Source of the DNA: Patescibacteria group bacterium
Lineage (GTDB): Bacteria > Patescibacteriota > Minisyncoccia > Minisyncoccales > Staskawiczbacteraceae
Reading direction: 5' to 3'
Length of the DNA stretch: 64,000 nucleotides
NCBI GenBank assembly: GCA_038065715.1
Contig: JBBTQL010000004.1
Coordinates: 35,693-99,692, forward strand
Shown piece by piece: positions 24,219 through 64,000 of this stretch. The notes under the pieces were generated by a model, which saw nothing but the letters and a program-made list of their open reading frames with translations, searched no databases and was not told where the DNA came from. Within the stretch, counting starts at the first letter, position 1. Each line of letters opens with the position of its first letter. The position numbers were made by a program, and so were the translations under genes.

Positions 24219-24878
24219 ATGGCTGTGCAAGTCATTGGCGATCTATATGTGGAGTTGGATGGGAAGTTGGCGGAGATTAAGCGGCAAATGAGGCAGCAGG
24301 GAGGCTATCCGTTTGACCCGGAGAAATTAAACAAGTTTCTCCAACTAGCTGTCGAGGGCAGGTTCAACGACAACCGGTGCTGGTGCGAGAAGGAAGGAGT
24401 GATCTACTTTGAGGTCACCTCTGACGGCACGACTGGACCCCAATGGATTGAGCGTCTGGAGAAGAAGGGTATCCAGCTCTCCAAGTGGGCCAAGGACGTC
24501 CTGCTGTCTCCGGACTTCAAGCCGACCAACGGCGTGACCACCGAGATCGCTGTCCTCAAGGGCGCGCTTTTTATGGACAATGATCGCATCACGTCTAAGA
24601 TCCGCGCTGAGGCCGACAAGCGCAAGCTCGTCAAGCCCGAAGCCGAACTCGGTTGCCTTATCCGCGACACGTTCACGGACGAGGAAATCGAAGCCATGGG
24701 TCTTGTGTGGATCGTGGCGTTCCACGAGCCCATCAAGGACTCTGACGGCGATCCGACGTTGCTCGGTGCGCGTCGCCTTGGCGATGGCCGTTGGCTGCGC
24801 GCGTGCTGCGGCCTGCCCGACCGCAGGTGGCTTCGCGACCGTGGCTTTGCCTTCGCCGTCTCGCAAGTATCTTCGTAA
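24219..24878 (+). CDS. DGR variable (target) protein A, with the variable region at its C-terminus
   Basis: SD aaaggagattgtc then ATG. 219 aa, ~57% GC. The C-terminal 42 codons are the VR matched by TR-A. Confidence 0.75.
   Translation: MAVQVIGDLYVELDGKLAEIKRQMRQQGGYPFDPEKLNKFLQLAVEGRFNDNRCWCEKEGVIYFEVTSDGTTGPQWIERLEKKGIQLSKWAKDVLLSPDFKPTNGVTTEIAVLKGALFMDNDRITSKIRAEADKRKLVKPEAELGCLIRDTFTDEEIEAMGLVWIVAFHEPIKDSDGDPTLLGARRLGDGRWLRACCGLPDRRWLRDRGFAFAVSQVSS
24741..24866 (+). repeat. DGR-A variable repeat (VR)
   Basis: 126 nt aligned to TR-A (25208-25333). Mismatches fall essentially only where the TR has A (e.g. TR aatcgcaatgac vs VR cgtcgccttggc). The 3' end ggctttgccttcgccgtctcgcaa is identical (IMH-like). 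Confidence 0.8.
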
Positions 24879-25207: not shown

Positions 25208-25333
25208 TCTGACGGCGATCCGAACTTGCTCAGTGCGAATCGCAATGACGATGGCCATTGGCTGAACGCGTACTACGACAAGCCCGACAACAGGTGGAAT
25301 CGCGACAATGGCTTTGCCTTCGCCGTCTCGCAA
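25208..25333 (+). repeat. DGR-A template repeat (TR)
   Basis: Non-coding copy of the VR, rich in AAC/AAT codons (…AACGCGTACTACGACAAGCCCGACAACAGGTGGAATCGCGACAAT…). Confidence 0.8.
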
Positions 25334-25339
25334 CTCTCT

Positions 25340-25699
25340 TCATTTCTCTCCTTGCTTAGGAGAGTTTTGTTTAATAATTTGTCCCGACCAACCACCGAGC
25401 ATTTTGCCAATTTCATCTAGTTTCAATGATAGAGCAATATATTTTTTGTTATCCAATGATTTTGTTTCCCAAAGAATCATTAAAAATATTTTTAACGTAT
25501 CGACCTTTCTAATTGCTAAACGTACATAGGACAATTTTTCTGATTGCCCAAGAAAACTTGCAGTCACTATTGCCTCTATTGCTTCAACAAAAAGTTTATC
25601 AATTTTTTCACCAAGAGAATATTTATGTATTTTTGGTATAATTAAATAGTGTTGGTACCAAAAAAGATAAGCTTCTTTCAACTTTTGCAAAACAGGCAA
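25340..25699 (-). CDS. avd: DGR accessory variability determinant Avd-A (TTG start)
   Basis: 120 aa. ...KYSLGEKIDKLFVEAIEAIVTASF...KLDEIGKMLGGWSGQIIKQ matches Avd four-helix-bundle proteins (compare Bordetella bAvd ...EVGRILGSWIARVNRK). Starts at TTG 25697-25699 just downstream of the C10 tract, as in copy B. The ORF track's longer start (25834) runs through the homopolymer. Confidence 0.7.
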   Translation of the reverse strand: MPVLQKLKEAYLFWYQHYLIIPKIHKYSLGEKIDKLFVEAIEAIVTASFLGQSEKLSYVRLAIRKVDTLKIFLMILWETKSLDNKKYIALSLKLDEIGKMLGGWSGQIIKQNSPKQGEK

Positions 25700-25705
25700 C
25701 AGTCT

Positions 25706-25715
25706 GGGGGGGGGG
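25706..25715. repeat. Homopolymeric G10 (C10 on the avd strand) in the avd/RT divergent intergenic region
   Basis: agtctGGGGGGGGGGattaaaag. The equivalent position in DGR-B has G7. Confidence 0.9.
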
Positions 25716-25739
25716 ATTAAAAGCTGAGTTATTTTGATT

Positions 25740-26726
25740 ATGAAAATTACTTTGCAACATAAATACGAAGACATCATAAGCGTTGAGAATATTTTGGAAG
25801 CATGGCAAGAGTTTCTTCTCGGCAAAAGAAACAAGCCCGATGTTCAAGAATTTTCTCTCTGTCTGATGAATAATGTTTTTAATTTGCACAACGACTTATC
25901 CAATCATACCTACAAACACGGAGGCTATCAACAATTTAAAATTAACGACCCAAAGCCAAGAACAATCCACAAAGCCAGCGTAAAAGACAGATTATTGCAC
26001 CACGCAGTATATCGTATATTATACCCGTTTTTTGATAAAAAGTTTATTGCAGACTCTTTCTCTTGCAGAAACAACAAAGGCACTCATAAAGCATTAAACA
26101 AATTCAGGGAGTTCAGCTATATTGTTTCCAAAAACAACACAAACACCTGCTGGATTTTAAAATGCGACATAAAAAAGTTTTTTGCCAGCGTTGATCAGCA
26201 GATACTAATTAAAATTTTAGAAAAATATATTTCAGAAAAAGATATTATCAACTTTCTAAAAGAAATAATTTTTGGTTTTAAACCCAATGGTTTGCCTCTC
26301 GGTAATTTGACTTCCCAGTTGTTCGCAAATGTTTATCTGAATGAATTTGACCAGTTTGTAAAACACAAATTGAAAGTAAAATACTATATTAGGTATGCCG
26401 ATGACTTCGTAATTTTATCAGAGAACAAAAATTATTTAAAAAACATAATTCCAGAGCTAAAATATTATTTAAAAAACAATTTAAAACTGGAAATTCATCC
26501 AAATAAAATTTTTATTAAAACATTGAATTCTGGCGTTGATTTTTTAGGCTGGATTAATTTTACAGATCATAGAGTTTTAAGGACAAAAACTAAAAACAGA
26601 ATATTAAAGAGAATAAAAAATAATTCAAGTATTGAAACATTAAATTCTTATTCGGGTTTGTTAAAACATGGAAATATGAACAAAATGATTAAGAAATTAT
26701 TTAAGGAAACGGAGATTGCTTTTTAA
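25740..26726 (+). CDS. DGR reverse transcriptase A
   Basis: RT motifs including GLPLGNLTSQLFANVYLNEFD (DGR-type motif 4) and YIRYADDFV (YxDD). 329 aa. Nearly identical to the partial RT at 63686. Confidence 0.85.
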   Translation: MKITLQHKYEDIISVENILEAWQEFLLGKRNKPDVQEFSLCLMNNVFNLHNDLSNHTYKHGGYQQFKINDPKPRTIHKASVKDRLLHHAVYRILYPFFDKKFIADSFSCRNNKGTHKALNKFREFSYIVSKNNTNTCWILKCDIKKFFASVDQQILIKILEKYISEKDIINFLKEIIFGFKPNGLPLGNLTSQLFANVYLNEFDQFVKHKLKVKYYIRYADDFVILSENKNYLKNIIPELKYYLKNNLKLEIHPNKIFIKTLNSGVDFLGWINFTDHRVLRTKTKNRILKRIKNNSSIETLNSYSGLLKHGNMNKMIKKLFKETEIAF

Positions 26727-34538: not shown

Positions 34539-34567
34539 TTGACACAGAGTTGAGGGGGGGGTATTAT
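34539..34567 (+). promoter_or_regulatory. Promoter TTGACA-N17-TATTAT whose spacer holds a G8 homopolymer (candidate phase-variable promoter)
   Basis: ttgaca 34539-34544. Spacer cagagttgaGGGGGGGG (17 nt, G run 34554-34561). tattat 34562-34567. Directly upstream of the secreted protein gene at 34665. Confidence 0.5.
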
Positions 34568-34664: not shown

Positions 34665-36359
34665 ATGAGAATAAAATATTTTTTAATAACAGCTGTTTTA
34701 GCAACATCAATTTTAGGTTCTGGCGGTTTTGTGAAAGCGCAAACCACAGACAATTCAGCGTTAATTGCCCAACTTCAAGCGCAAATTCAGGCAATTCTGC
34801 AACAAATAGCGCAACTGCAAGCTCAGCAAGATACAAACGCGGTCCAAAACTCTGCGTCAGAAAATGCTAATTCAGACAGTTCAAAAGCAAACTGGTGCTA
34901 TAATTTCAAACAAAACTTGTGGATTGGTAAAAATGGCAGGCCTGTTGAGGCTTTACAGATTGCTTTGTCTAAAGAAGGTTTGTTTGACGCCAGTTTAATT
35001 AAGAATCCATGGAGATTTGGCCCCTCTACCTTATTGGCAGTAATCAAGTTTCAGAATAAATATAGCATAAAACCAACAGGATATGTGGGCTTCGCCACAA
35101 ACAAAAAACTAAACGAACTCTACGGCTGCAAAACCACCGAGTCATCAGTTACAGTTACTTCGCCCAACGGCGGAGAGGAGTGGGTGCGAGGGTCAACTCA
35201 TAATGTTACGTGGACGTCTCAAAATGTGGAAAGAGATGTTTATCTTACAATTAAAAACTTTGACACAAACGTCATAAAGAGCATTTCTTTAGCGCCTGTT
35301 TCGCCGGTCAGCGATTCTGCTTCTTTTAATATTCCGTCTGATTTGGCCGTGGGAAACAAATATAAGGTTAGAGTGGGAAATAGCGATGTTTCAGATTACA
35401 GCGACAATTATTTTAGCATTCTTGATACAACAACTTCTTCAAATGCGTCTATTACCGTCACTTCGCCCAACGGCGGAGAAACATGGCAAGTCGGCGGAAC
35501 GCATAATATCACATGGTTCAGTCAGGGTGCAAATGCTATAAATTATAATGTTCAAATCGGAATTATTGATAATCGCTATAGTACGGAATCAGGAGATAGA
35601 TCCGAAAAAATTATAGTAAATTCTATTCCTAATACTGGCAGTTATTCTTGGACGGTGCCTCAATCTATTGGAACAATGAATCTGAATGATACTATCCAAC
35701 CGGTTTATAAAATTGTTGTACATTCTCGAAGTGATGCGGTTACAGGAGTGGCTCTTGGAGACTCGAGCGATAATCCTTTCAGTATTGTGGCGCCGACGGT
35801 TGCCTGTACGTCATTTACCTATTCAGCTTGGGGGGCTTGCCAGTCAAACAATACCCAAACAAGAACAGTTGTATCATCCTCGCCAACTGGATGCGCAGGA
35901 GGCAGCCCAATATTATCGCAATCTTGCGGAGTAGTAAAGACTGTATTCAGCAATAGCCAAATTTATCTTGACGCCAATAGCAAAGTAGCGCCCTTGTCTT
36001 GCACTAATTATAAGTGTAACGGCTCTTTTGGCTATTGCTCTGCTTCTTGCGGAGGAGGATATTATCCAGATAATTTAACAGCCCAGAAATTGTGCCAGAA
36101 AAAAGGTTACGATGCAGCTTCAAGTTTCACCATAAAAAATGGTTTTTATGCATCTTGCAGCGATAACTATATGTGGAAATGGAATGGGGTTAGCGCTGAA
36201 TATGTTTGGTCTTGCGTTAAAAATAGCGGTATAGACACTGTCACTTGCTCAAAAACTGTTGGGACTACGGCAAGCATTGATTCTCAAGATCAATTAGCGT
36301 CTATTTCTAGCGCAATACAAAGAATAGCTCAACAAATTCAAGCATTATTTGAAAGGTAA
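34665..36359 (+). CDS. Secreted protein with a peptidoglycan-binding domain, repeated SPNGGE-W-type beta domains and a Cys-rich C-terminus
   Basis: Signal peptide MRIKYFLITAVLATSILGSGGFVKA. Q-rich coiled coil. PG_binding_1-like GKNGRPVEALQIALSKEG...IKFQNKYSIKPTGYVG. Two VTVTSPNGGEEW/ETW..G.TH.TW repeats. Many Cys in the last 150 aa. Confidence 0.65.
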   Translation: MRIKYFLITAVLATSILGSGGFVKAQTTDNSALIAQLQAQIQAILQQIAQLQAQQDTNAVQNSASENANSDSSKANWCYNFKQNLWIGKNGRPVEALQIALSKEGLFDASLIKNPWRFGPSTLLAVIKFQNKYSIKPTGYVGFATNKKLNELYGCKTTESSVTVTSPNGGEEWVRGSTHNVTWTSQNVERDVYLTIKNFDTNVIKSISLAPVSPVSDSASFNIPSDLAVGNKYKVRVGNSDVSDYSDNYFSILDTTTSSNASITVTSPNGGETWQVGGTHNITWFSQGANAINYNVQIGIIDNRYSTESGDRSEKIIVNSIPNTGSYSWTVPQSIGTMNLNDTIQPVYKIVVHSRSDAVTGVALGDSSDNPFSIVAPTVACTSFTYSAWGACQSNNTQTRTVVSSSPTGCAGGSPILSQSCGVVKTVFSNSQIYLDANSKVAPLSCTNYKCNGSFGYCSASCGGGYYPDNLTAQKLCQKKGYDAASSFTIKNGFYASCSDNYMWKWNGVSAEYVWSCVKNSGIDTVTCSKTVGTTASIDSQDQLASISSAIQRIAQQIQALFER

Positions 36360-57629: not shown

Positions 57630-57698
57630 AAAAGTAACTCTTTATTTCAGTCAAGATGACCGAAAAGAGTTAGACCCCCCCAGAAAGGAGAGTGCAAG

Positions 57699-62025: not shown

Positions 62026-62201
62026 TTAATAATACAGCTCTTTTTAAGTGAAAATACTTGCAAAAACAGCGGTTATAGCCAAAAGCGACCGAAGGTCGTC
62101 CTGAGCAGAGCCGAAGGACAACAAATCGGTATTTTCTGGCTATGACTGCTATGGTAGTAGTCAAGCGAAATGGTGAAACCCTAAAGAAAGGAAAAAGCAC
62201 C

Positions 62202-62822
62202 ATGTCGTACGACAAGCAGACAGCCGAGTTCATCGCCACTGTGGTGCAGAACATCCCCAAAATGTCAGGCGATGTTATGCAGGGTTGGATTGGGAATCCA
62301 AAAGCGCTACAGAAGCTCCTCTTGGGTCTATGCCCTTCTGTCAATGAGCCCAAGGAAGTCTCGTTGCTCCGCAAGCTCGCCAGCGTTCAGGTGGAGGGCG
62401 TTGCAAGATTCGTCGTTGACGACGATACCCTGCAGGCGGCCAACATCGGCTGGACTGGCGACAACTTCAAAAAGTTTTTCGCCAAGAAGGTTGAGGAGGA
62501 TGTTCCCGCCTGCGCTATCGCTGTTCACCGGCTGGAACGCGCGTCTTCGGATGCGCCCATTCTCACCGAACTCGGTGACCGCGCCGAAATCAGCCTCGCG
62601 CACCTGTTCGAGCTGATCAAAAAGCAGTCCAAGGGCGAAACTGGCCAGTTGTTGGTTAATGGTTATGCGAATGTCGCATATGTCCGTGGAACCGATGGCA
62701 ACCTCTGGGCTGTGCTTGCGGCCTGGCGCTCTTACTGCGGTTGCTGGGGTGTCGAGGCTGACTCGGTTGAGGATCCGGACGGGTGGCGCGGTAGCCGCCG
62801 GATTCTCTCCCGCGATTCTTGA
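62202..62822 (+). CDS. DGR variable (target) protein B, with the variable region at the extreme C-terminus
   Basis: SD aaaggaaaaagcacc then ATG at 62202. ~57% GC. Last 36 codons = VR-B. The ORF track's upstream ATG (62142) lies in the conserved leader. Confidence 0.7.
   Translation: MSYDKQTAEFIATVVQNIPKMSGDVMQGWIGNPKALQKLLLGLCPSVNEPKEVSLLRKLASVQVEGVARFVVDDDTLQAANIGWTGDNFKKFFAKKVEEDVPACAIAVHRLERASSDAPILTELGDRAEISLAHLFELIKKQSKGETGQLLVNGYANVAYVRGTDGNLWAVLAAWRSYCGCWGVEADSVEDPDGWRGSRRILSRDS
62704..62813 (+). repeat. DGR-B variable repeat (VR)
   Basis: 110 nt aligned to TR-B (63165-63274). Substitutions essentially only at TR adenines (TR tac ggt tac tgg aat ... aac vs VR tgc ggt tgc tgg ggt ... 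gac). Shared 3' attctctcccgc. Confidence 0.8.
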
Positions 62823-63164: not shown

Positions 63165-63274
63165 TCTGGGCTGTGAATGCGAACTGGAACTCTAACTACG
63201 GTTACTGGAATGTCGAGGCTAACTCGGTTGAGAATCCGAACAGGTGGAACGATAGCAACCAGATTCTCTCCCGC
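63165..63274 (+). repeat. DGR-B template repeat (TR)
   Basis: AAC/AAT-rich (…AACTGGAACTCTAACTACGGTTACTGGAATGTCGAGGCTAACTCG…). Encodes LWAVNANWNSNYGYWNVEANSVENPNRWNDSNQ in the VR frame. Confidence 0.8.
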
Positions 63275-63642
63275 TACTGTTTTCTTTCTTCCGCTTTTAT
63301 CGCGGAAGTTTTGCTTATTATTCCTTTTTTCCAGCCACCGATTATCTTACCAATGCCTTCTATCTCAGCGCCAAGCGAGATATATTGTTTATTAGAAACG
63401 AGTTTTGTTTCCCATAAAAGCTGAAAGAAAAAACGCAACGAATCAATTTTGTCCGATGTCGCTTCAAGCAAAACAAGTTTTTTATTTATTGGCGTATACG
63501 TAGCTTTTCTTAATAACTCAAGAAGATCTAAAAATAAAATATCTACTTTAGTCCCGATTCCGAACCGCGCGATTCGTTCAATATTGCGATGCACTTCCAT
63601 CCACTGTTTATATATCAATTTGGATTTTTGCAAAACTGGCAA
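63274..63642 (-). CDS. avd: DGR accessory variability determinant Avd-B (TTG start)
   Basis: 122 aa. ...LGAEIEGIGKIIGGWKKGIISK C-terminus. Co-linear with Avd-A. Stop codon overlaps the last 2 nt of TR-B. TTG start 6 nt from the C7 tract. Confidence 0.7.
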   Translation of the reverse strand: MPVLQKSKLIYKQWMEVHRNIERIARFGIGTKVDILFLDLLELLRKATYTPINKKLVLLEATSDKIDSLRFFFQLLWETKLVSNKQYISLGAEIEGIGKIIGGWKKGIISKTSAIKAEERKQ

Positions 63643-63648
63643 CAGTCT

Positions 63649-63655
63649 GGGGGGG
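63649..63655. repeat. Homopolymeric G7 in the avd-B/RT-B divergent intergenic region
   Basis: agtctGGGGGGGattagaag. Homologous position to the G10 tract in DGR-A. Confidence 0.9.
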
Positions 63656-63685
63656 ATTAGAAGAATAACTATTTATATTTTGATT

Positions 63686-64000
63686 ATGAAAATTGTTTTG
63701 AAACATAAATATGAATATTTAATTAGCGTTAATAATTTATTGGAAGCGTGGACAGAATTTATCAAGGGGAAGCGCAACAAAAGCGATGTTCAGATTTTTT
63801 CATTTCATTTAATGGATAATATTTTACAACTTCATTGTGATTTAAAAAATGGCACATATAAGCATGGAGGCTATCAACAATTTAAAATCAACGACCCAAA
63901 ACCAAGGATAATTCACAAAGCCAGCGTAAAAGACAGATTATTGCACCACGCAGTATATCGTATATTATACCCGTTTTTTGATAAAAAGTTCATTGCAGAC
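63686..64000 (+). CDS. DGR reverse transcriptase B (5' part; continues beyond the window)
   Basis: MKIVLKHKYEYLISVNNLLEAWTEFIKGKRNK...GGYQQFKINDPKPRIIHKASVKDRLLHHAVYRILYPFFDKKFIAD. The last ~130 nt are ~95% identical at the DNA level to RT-A 25920-26050. Confidence 0.85.
   Translation, partial: MKIVLKHKYEYLISVNNLLEAWTEFIKGKRNKSDVQIFSFHLMDNILQLHCDLKNGTYKHGGYQQFKINDPKPRIIHKASVKDRLLHHAVYRILYPFFDKKFIAD

Follow-up and report, generated by a model that had tools for sequence, protein, structure and literature searches.

The described systems that come closest to the locus reported here are the intragenic poly-G repeats of Campylobacter jejuni (G8-G13) and of hmbR and pilC in Neisseria. The locus itself is a poly-G tract at the junction of the head-to-head avd and reverse transcriptase (RT) genes, present in both diversity-generating retroelements (DGR-A and DGR-B) of a 64,000-nucleotide stretch of DNA (the window; positions 35,693 to 99,692 of contig JBBTQL010000004.1, GenBank assembly GCA_038065715.1) from a population of Patescibacteria in Hainich groundwater well H43. 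The tract is probably an intragenic contingency repeat that would gate Avd and thereby DGR mutagenesis. Its resemblance to the Campylobacter and Neisseria loci lies in a pure G/C run of 8-13 in an AT-rich genome, a position in the 5' part of a coding sequence (CDS) and frame shifts of ±1, as well as in lengths that differ between close relatives and in the collapsed, 'locked' versions of some lineages. In contrast to those loci, the gated gene has no surface or restriction function but encodes the accessory factor of a retroelement that itself hypermutates a target gene, and the repeat adjoins, in some clades lies inside, a head-to-head gene overlap. The DGR repeat is furthermore in frame in only 21% of the assembled loci.

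Two other kinds of repeat invite comparison. In the transcriptional phase variation of Haemophilus influenzae hifA/hifB, with its (TA)n repeat, and of the Neisseria porA/opc and Bordetella fim tracts, repeat length acts through spacing, the tract lying between the two promoter hexamers (-35 and -10) or between the -10 and an activator site. The DGR tract is like these in being placed between divergent genes or upstream of a gene with an overlapping promoter, here that of RT, but it has no such hexamers or constant spacing and appears to be translated within avd. Programmed slippage or frameshifting at homopolymers, as in Thermus dnaX, insertion sequence (IS) elements and the poly(A) genes of endosymbionts, takes place on A/T runs and keeps a conserved shift direction. 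Such sites share with the DGR locus a homopolymer of at least 9 at the junction of two open reading frame (ORF) segments whose DNA is usually not in frame, whereas the DGR runs are G/C or dinucleotide repeats, need both shift directions equally often and vary in length at the DNA level.

As retroelements, both cassettes have the component order target gene with variable repeat (VR), template repeat (TR), reverse-strand avd and RT, which corresponds to architecture B3, TR-(avd)-RT, of Wu et al. 2018 (PMC5758913). They resemble B3 and the Patescibacteria-restricted DGR clade 2 (Roux et al. 2021, PMC8144416) in component order, in their groundwater hosts of the Candidate Phyla Radiation (CPR) and in adenine-specific mismatches, and go beyond what these surveys describe in having overlapping start codons and a repeat inside avd. 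The parts of the avd/RT junction are as follows.

25706..25715, minus strand: G10 tract of DGR-A, reading C10 in avd codons ~16-19 (poly-Pro); its length would set the avd frame
25716..25760, minus strand: 5' segment of avd-A, with ATG at 25760-25758 followed by MLQSNFHNQNNSAFN up to the tract
25340..25705, minus strand: avd-A core and stop codon, with the bAvd four-helix-bundle domain; out of frame with the ATG at G10
25740..26726, plus strand: RT of DGR-A (Pfam RVT_1, E=1e-24), starting at an ATG of its own that follows the tract by 24 nt
63649..63655, minus strand: G7 tract of DGR-B, reading C7 in avd-B; same length in one other assembly seen
63656..63706, minus strand: 5' segment of avd-B, with ATG at 63706-63704 followed by MFQNNFHNQNINSYSSN as far as the tract; exceeds its DGR-A counterpart by 6 nt (2 codons)
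63274..63648, minus strand: avd-B core and stop codon; joined in frame to the ATG by G6 or G9 but not by the G7 of the window
63686..64000, plus strand: 5' part of the RT of DGR-B, which runs off the window; a 326-aa RVT_1 gene on contig L090
25740..25760 and 63686..63706, both strands: head-to-head overlap of the RT and avd start regions, 21 nt, ATG-N15-CAT, the same on both strands

The two tracts occupy homologous sites between the reverse-strand avd and the RT gene, at the coordinates given by the first-pass annotation. That annotation had also described conserved flanks, and a ~30-nt island, TTTTGCAAAAC.GGCAACAGTCT-Gn-ATTA.AAG, is indeed common to DGR-A and DGR-B and far better kept between the two copies than the adjoining avd sequence; the distance to the RT ATG, proposed as about 25-30 nt, is 24 nt in DGR-A (25740) and 30 nt in DGR-B (63686). 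The view that such runs are unlikely by chance holds for one tract and not, by itself, for the other. Under an independent and identically distributed model, the G/C runs expected in 64 kb number 0.003 for length 10, 0.085 for length 8 and 0.47 for length 7; G10 is thus far beyond chance, whereas the length of G7 alone is not, and this tract gains significance only from its homologous position. Besides the two tracts, the only G/C runs of at least 7 in the window are a G8 at 34554-34561 and a C7 at 57675-57681.

We compared 80 loci from species-representative genomes and 80 from metagenomes, with RTs 54-76% identical. A simple repeat was found at the homologous site in 142 of the 155 evaluable loci (74/77 genome and 68/78 metagenome loci). 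Poly-G accounts for 129 of these (131 with the two in the window), with lengths of 6-14, a mode of 9-10 and ~77% of tracts within 9-11, and the other 13 loci have (GA)n or (GT)n of 11-32 nt in place of poly-G. The G-rich strand is the RT sense strand in 142/142 repeats, and interrupted tracts are rare. The flanks, in contrast, are poorly conserved at this distance, and position-specific base counts revealed no flank position kept comparably to the repeat. Because the repeat is retained or replaced while its flanks diverge, what is conserved is a pure repeat at this site and no particular sequence, and this is the usual signature of a contingency locus. In 25 more distant DGR RT loci from viral contigs (27-58% identity), no repeat was found.

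We infer computationally, from four independent lines, that the ATG beyond the tract is the avd start and the tract therefore part of the avd CDS. Read on the other strand, this ATG is RT codon 7 (His, CAT), the RT beginning M-K-I-x-L-x-H and Avd M-x-Q-L-x-F-H, and the ATG-N15-CAT arrangement is also present in repeat-less relatives. The N-terminal His codon of RT is CAT in 116/120 loci, compared with 54% of the His codons elsewhere in those RT genes (p=2e-24). From the antisense ATG the frame is open to the tract in 93/94 loci, whereas the other two frames are open in 14/94 and 11/94; for the intergenic portion alone the counts are 84/85 against 62 and 29. On the far side, no stop interrupts the avd frame between the 3' edge of the tract and the core in any of 69 loci, while just upstream of the tract 25/69 have a stop in this frame; 24/69 have no ATG, GTG or TTG between tract and Avd core. 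All six intact loci within the clade in which the repeat is collapsed or absent (L037, L104, L118, L132, L147 and L160) have a continuous avd ORF from the antisense ATG, compared with 22/105 repeat-bearing loci (p=1.7e-4); they resemble different sub-clades and so look like independent losses. In the repeat-less out-group, where avd is likewise on the reverse strand, plain ATG starts lie 4-16 codons before the conserved (L/I)P motif. If the tract is coding, it would therefore act by frameshift. The start codons of RT and avd are mutually antisense, and short leaders on both mRNAs would make their 5' ends complementary.

The predicted products follow from tract length. In DGR-A, G9 and G12 would give an Avd of 139 and 140 aa, the G10 of the window 45 aa and G11 27 aa; in DGR-B, G6 and G9 would give 143 and 144 aa and the G7 of the window 32 aa. 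Both avd copies in the window are thus out of frame, broken by G10 and G7, respectively. The Pfam family PF22296 (bAvd) matches residues 25-125 of the 139-aa G9 form of DGR-A above the cut-off (E=2e-11), and the DGR-B form with E=3e-9 and 37.8 bits, slightly below the 40-bit cut-off. As assembled, the repeat-bearing loci are in frame in 22 cases (18+4), need -1 in 44 (38+6) and need +1 in 39 (36+3).

Length differences were observed between near-identical genomes, with G9, G10 or G11 in independent assemblies of the population from which the window comes. A 139-kb contig from sample ERZ1292632 has a single difference from the window in 21,696 bp, and this difference is the tract, G9 instead of G10; the in-frame allele of DGR-A thus coexists at the same site as the G10 of the window. 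Contig L001 likewise has a single difference in 4,057 bp, a G11, and G10 is found on three contigs, one of them in an NCBI metagenome-assembled genome (MAG). L001 (G11) and L003 (G9), both from sample ERZ1292635, share a 90-nt overlap across the tract (window 25671-25760) and were left unmerged, which is consistent with mixed tract lengths among the reads of that sample. Constant in every assembly seen were the G7 of DGR-B, the G8, the C7, eleven A8 runs and three T8 runs. Among clusters of near-identical loci, 3/7 differ by ±1 G, including two other species from different studies; L065 and L177 in these clusters are one contig that occurs in two collections. As in known contingency loci, then, we find an uninterrupted repeat of hypermutable type, placed, by computation, where it would alter expression, and polymorphic in length among near-identical genomes, with technical error possible for the last.

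The mechanism that we propose is as follows. Translation of avd on the minus strand would start at the antisense ATG of RT His7 and reach the repeat ~15 codons later. Slipped-strand mispairing at replication, presumably the source of the observed length differences, would add or remove one G:C pair, or one GA or GT unit in some lineages, and one length class in three would join the ATG segment to the Avd core and yield full-length Avd. Avd is essential in the Bordetella phage, where binding of Avd to RT is required for retrohoming (PMC5758913). If Avd is equally essential in the present clade, and if OFF alleles make no functional Avd, RT should produce no mutagenic cDNA in cells carrying them, and targeted hypermutation of the variable protein would be ON in a minority of cells only and OFF in all others, a state both heritable and reversible. 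The first-pass annotation had suggested a phase-variable switch for DGR mutagenesis; this idea gains strong comparative support from the 142/155 loci and strong population support from the ±1 G differences, whereas the promoter or initiation mechanism proposed with it is not supported (see below).

The same repeat may also bear on RT. For 56 loci, among them the two of the window, an ATG belonging to RT follows the tract at 13-30 nt, which places the tract in the RT promoter or leader, and an effect of tract length on RT is possible. About 15 loci have no RT start after the tract, and an upstream ATG with an open path was present in 15/15 real cases compared with 29/56. That the tract lies inside the RT CDS was rejected for loci of the window type, with their own RT ATG and, in DGR-A, an in-frame TGA (25725-25727) separating the tract from it, and appears true for the ~15 loci only. 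In a (GA)n sub-clade (L040, L172, L160, L070 and L156), RT (MRNDFNPNQI...) starts at a conserved ATG before the repeat, which is translated as (Glu-Arg)n in RT and as (Ser-Leu)n in avd, so that a single repeat lies within both genes; in the repeat-less member L160, RT is also in frame from the upstream ATG. One repeat would in this sub-clade shift both avd and RT.

Several observations weigh against the proposed gate or are left unexplained by it. Only 21% of the repeat-bearing loci are in frame, compared with a neutral expectation of 1/3 (p=0.004), and an intragenic gate thus needs an extra assumption, either selection for a default OFF state or leaky expression. Loss of ON alleles through active DGRs breaking assemblies was considered and rejected as an explanation of this deficit, the repeat being in frame on 4/13 short and 18/92 long contigs, a difference that is not significant. 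Illumina sequencing miscalls long G runs. Our tract lengths come from assemblies, several of them with contigs of 3-12x, and the G9/G10/G11 spread could for both reasons be partly or wholly technical. The target A protein, including its VR, is identical on all 8 contigs carrying target A, whatever the tract length, so there is no visible link between tract phase and diversification. In the window, with G10, the ATGs at 25777/25774 (minus strand) are in frame with the Avd core and would give 145 aa, the product annotated on the NCBI MAG contig. Only 11-14/94 loci have a non-canonical frame that is open as far as these ATGs. The Leu codon after the tract is TTG in 33/53 loci, against 19% by codon usage (p=5e-12), an excess that would fit a secondary internal start and may make OFF alleles leaky. 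Essentiality of Avd is known only from distant DGRs, by analogy with which it is assumed here. Finally, the genome has 34% GC, and yet the repeats at the avd/RT site all contain G, a bias that a frame-shifting gate leaves without explanation.

The alternative that survives best, although we consider it unlikely, is the one contained in the first-pass annotation, namely that the tract belongs to a shared divergent control region, as a promoter spacer and/or as the 5' untranslated region of an avd starting at TTG, and that its length tunes transcription or initiation. The TTG in question lies 6 nt from the tract (25697-25699 in DGR-A, 63640-63642 in DGR-B), and its enrichment at this codon speaks for such a start, as do the position of the tract upstream of the RT ATG, within the RT promoter or leader, the G8 found elsewhere in the genome in a textbook TTGACA-N17-TATTAT spacer, and a genome largely without Shine-Dalgarno (SD) motifs, in which an unstructured C-rich leader could serve. 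Against it, however, the position holds a conserved hydrophobic residue encoded by TTG in 33 loci, TTA in 9, CTN in 11, ATA/ATT/ATC in 4 and others; the codon is a non-start codon (TTA, CTN, ATA or similar) in ~45% of loci, and the TTG is most likely an internal Leu codon. Together with the 24/69 loci that have no start after the tract, this led us to reject TTG 25699 as the general avd start and to keep it as a possible back-up. The promoter-spacing part fares no better: base counts to the left and right of the tract reveal neither conserved hexamers nor a fixed spacing, the -10 position weight matrix (PWM) score after the tract is 1.53 compared with 1.57 in shuffled sequences, a consensus scan finds no promoter at either tract, and repeats of 20-32 nt are too long for a 17-nt spacer. 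For a spacer of the hif, porA or opc type the distance from the conserved GGCAA to the post-tract motif is also too variable, at 13 to 21 nt and more. A control region would moreover leave unexplained the CAT bias at His7, the open frame in 93/94 loci and the in-frame repeat-less loci.

Non-heritable recoding, in which polymerase slippage or ribosomal frameshifting on C9-11 yields a fixed small share of in-frame Avd and the tract acts as an attenuator and no switch, appears to us quite improbable. It would account for ORFs that stay intact even though the majority of alleles are out of frame. The tracts moreover have their modal length at 9-11, as long as the RNA:DNA hybrid on which slippage turns efficient, and CCC-C is known to be shift-prone. 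Programmed sites keep one direction, however, while the frame offsets here are 0, -1 and +1 in 22, 44 and 39 loci, and (GA)n and (GT)n, whose units change the frame by 2 nt, are not among the known sites of slippage or frameshifting. These mixed offsets and dinucleotide repeats exclude a recoding site of fixed direction, and length differences exist in the DNA itself between near-identical genomes.

That the tract is real but stable, with G9, G10 and G11 arising as sequencing or assembly errors at a long homopolymer, is very doubtful in our judgement, even though contig coverages are low (3-12x) and variation is confined to the longest run (9-11) while G7 and G8 are constant, as length-dependent error would give. 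Against error stands the ±1 variation in the two other species from different studies, which includes a 28x contig (L120), and pure repeats kept down to ~55% RT identity, together with the swaps of repeat type, argue for selection on repeat purity at any rate of error. A poly-G that is itself a sequencing artefact was rejected, the tract being interior to contigs, with unique flanks, in many independent projects. Least credible of all is a structural element without switching, either non-B DNA (triplex, Z-DNA or G-quadruplex) that insulates overlapping divergent promoters or an RNA element of the RT leader: poly(G), (GA)n and (GT)n are classic non-B-forming repeats, the constant G-rich strand suggests a strand-specific role and the site lies between divergent transcription units, but RNA folding around the tract is neither significant nor shared (z = -1.8, 0.1, -0.1 and -0.8, with folds that differ between DGR-A and DGR-B), six loci within the clade and the out-group keep intact cassettes without the repeat, and its place exactly at the junction of two ORF segments would go unexplained.

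The remaining parts of the two cassettes are listed below. Both are true DGRs, with TR/VR mismatches confined to TR adenines and the VR at the 3' end of the target ORF:

24741..24874, plus strand: VR of DGR-A, at the 3' end of target gene A (24219-24878)
25208..25341, plus strand: TR of DGR-A, 82% identical to the VR, with mismatches at TR adenines only
25346..25364, plus strand: terminator-like hairpin and T-run directly 3' of the TR of DGR-A, with a 7-bp stem, inside the avd 3' coding end
62704..62820, plus strand: VR of DGR-B, at the 3' end of target gene B (62142-62822)
63165..63281, plus strand: TR of DGR-B, with mismatches to the VR at TR adenines only
63288..63308, plus strand: terminator-like hairpin and T-run 3' of the TR of DGR-B, of the same 7-bp form, inside the avd 3' coding end

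A Pfam search gave no match for either target protein. The stem sequences of the two hairpins differ while their form is kept. Being placed right behind each TR, the hairpins may mark where the TR RNA terminates, ~340 nt short of the tract; a tract that is part of the TR RNA or of a priming spacer is for the same reason unlikely. In the window as a whole, an SD-like motif was found before only ~7/50 long ORFs, and AT-rich, -10-like sequence precedes many start codons, which suggests widespread SD-independent or leaderless initiation.

The window contains two other G/C runs. The G8 at 34554-34561 ends the spacer of a TTGACA-N17-TATTAT promoter (34539-34567) located 98 nt upstream of a 564-aa ORF (34665-36359) with a weak PG_binding_1 match; it is the same in six assemblies and is a candidate promoter-spacer repeat. 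The C7 at 57675-57681 lies in the csrA leader, directly 5' of an AAAGGAG Shine-Dalgarno sequence, and had been pointed out as similar to the DGR motif. The run is real, but its length is constant in the other assembly checked and no link to the DGRs was found, and we have set it aside as a related motif.

Intragenic poly-G contingency loci and DGRs are each well known; what would be new is their combination, a targeted hypermutator gated by a contingency repeat that lies where two divergent genes overlap and is kept across a large clade. The searchable full-text literature yielded no link between DGRs and repeats or between DGRs and phase variation, in agreement with the earlier statement that none has been described, and the text of two DGR surveys (PMC5758913, PMC8144416) makes no mention of a homopolymer, a repeat or phase variation. 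If the proposed gate exists, annotation would need correction for the avd start, the 21-nt avd/RT overlap and, in hundreds of MAGs, the avd and RT genes called as 'frameshifted' or truncated. Tract phase could then also serve as a predictor of DGR activity that can be read from sequence in metagenome surveys, and, for the reconstitution of compact DGRs, would tell which allele to clone.

Uncontrolled mutagenesis of a functional protein is costly. Across a large part of the Patescibacteria, the avd/RT junction repeat might form a two-tier evolvability device, a suggestion for which we see about equal grounds for belief and doubt: mutagenesis would be OFF in most cells and stochastically and reversibly ON in a few, with both genes toggled in (GA)n-like sub-clades. 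Such a device would join the two best-known prokaryotic systems of 'programmed variation', simple-repeat contingency loci and retroelement diversification, in one hierarchy, and its stochastic ON/OFF gate would explain how episymbiotic bacteria with tiny genomes and almost no regulators retain their DGRs and use them sparingly.

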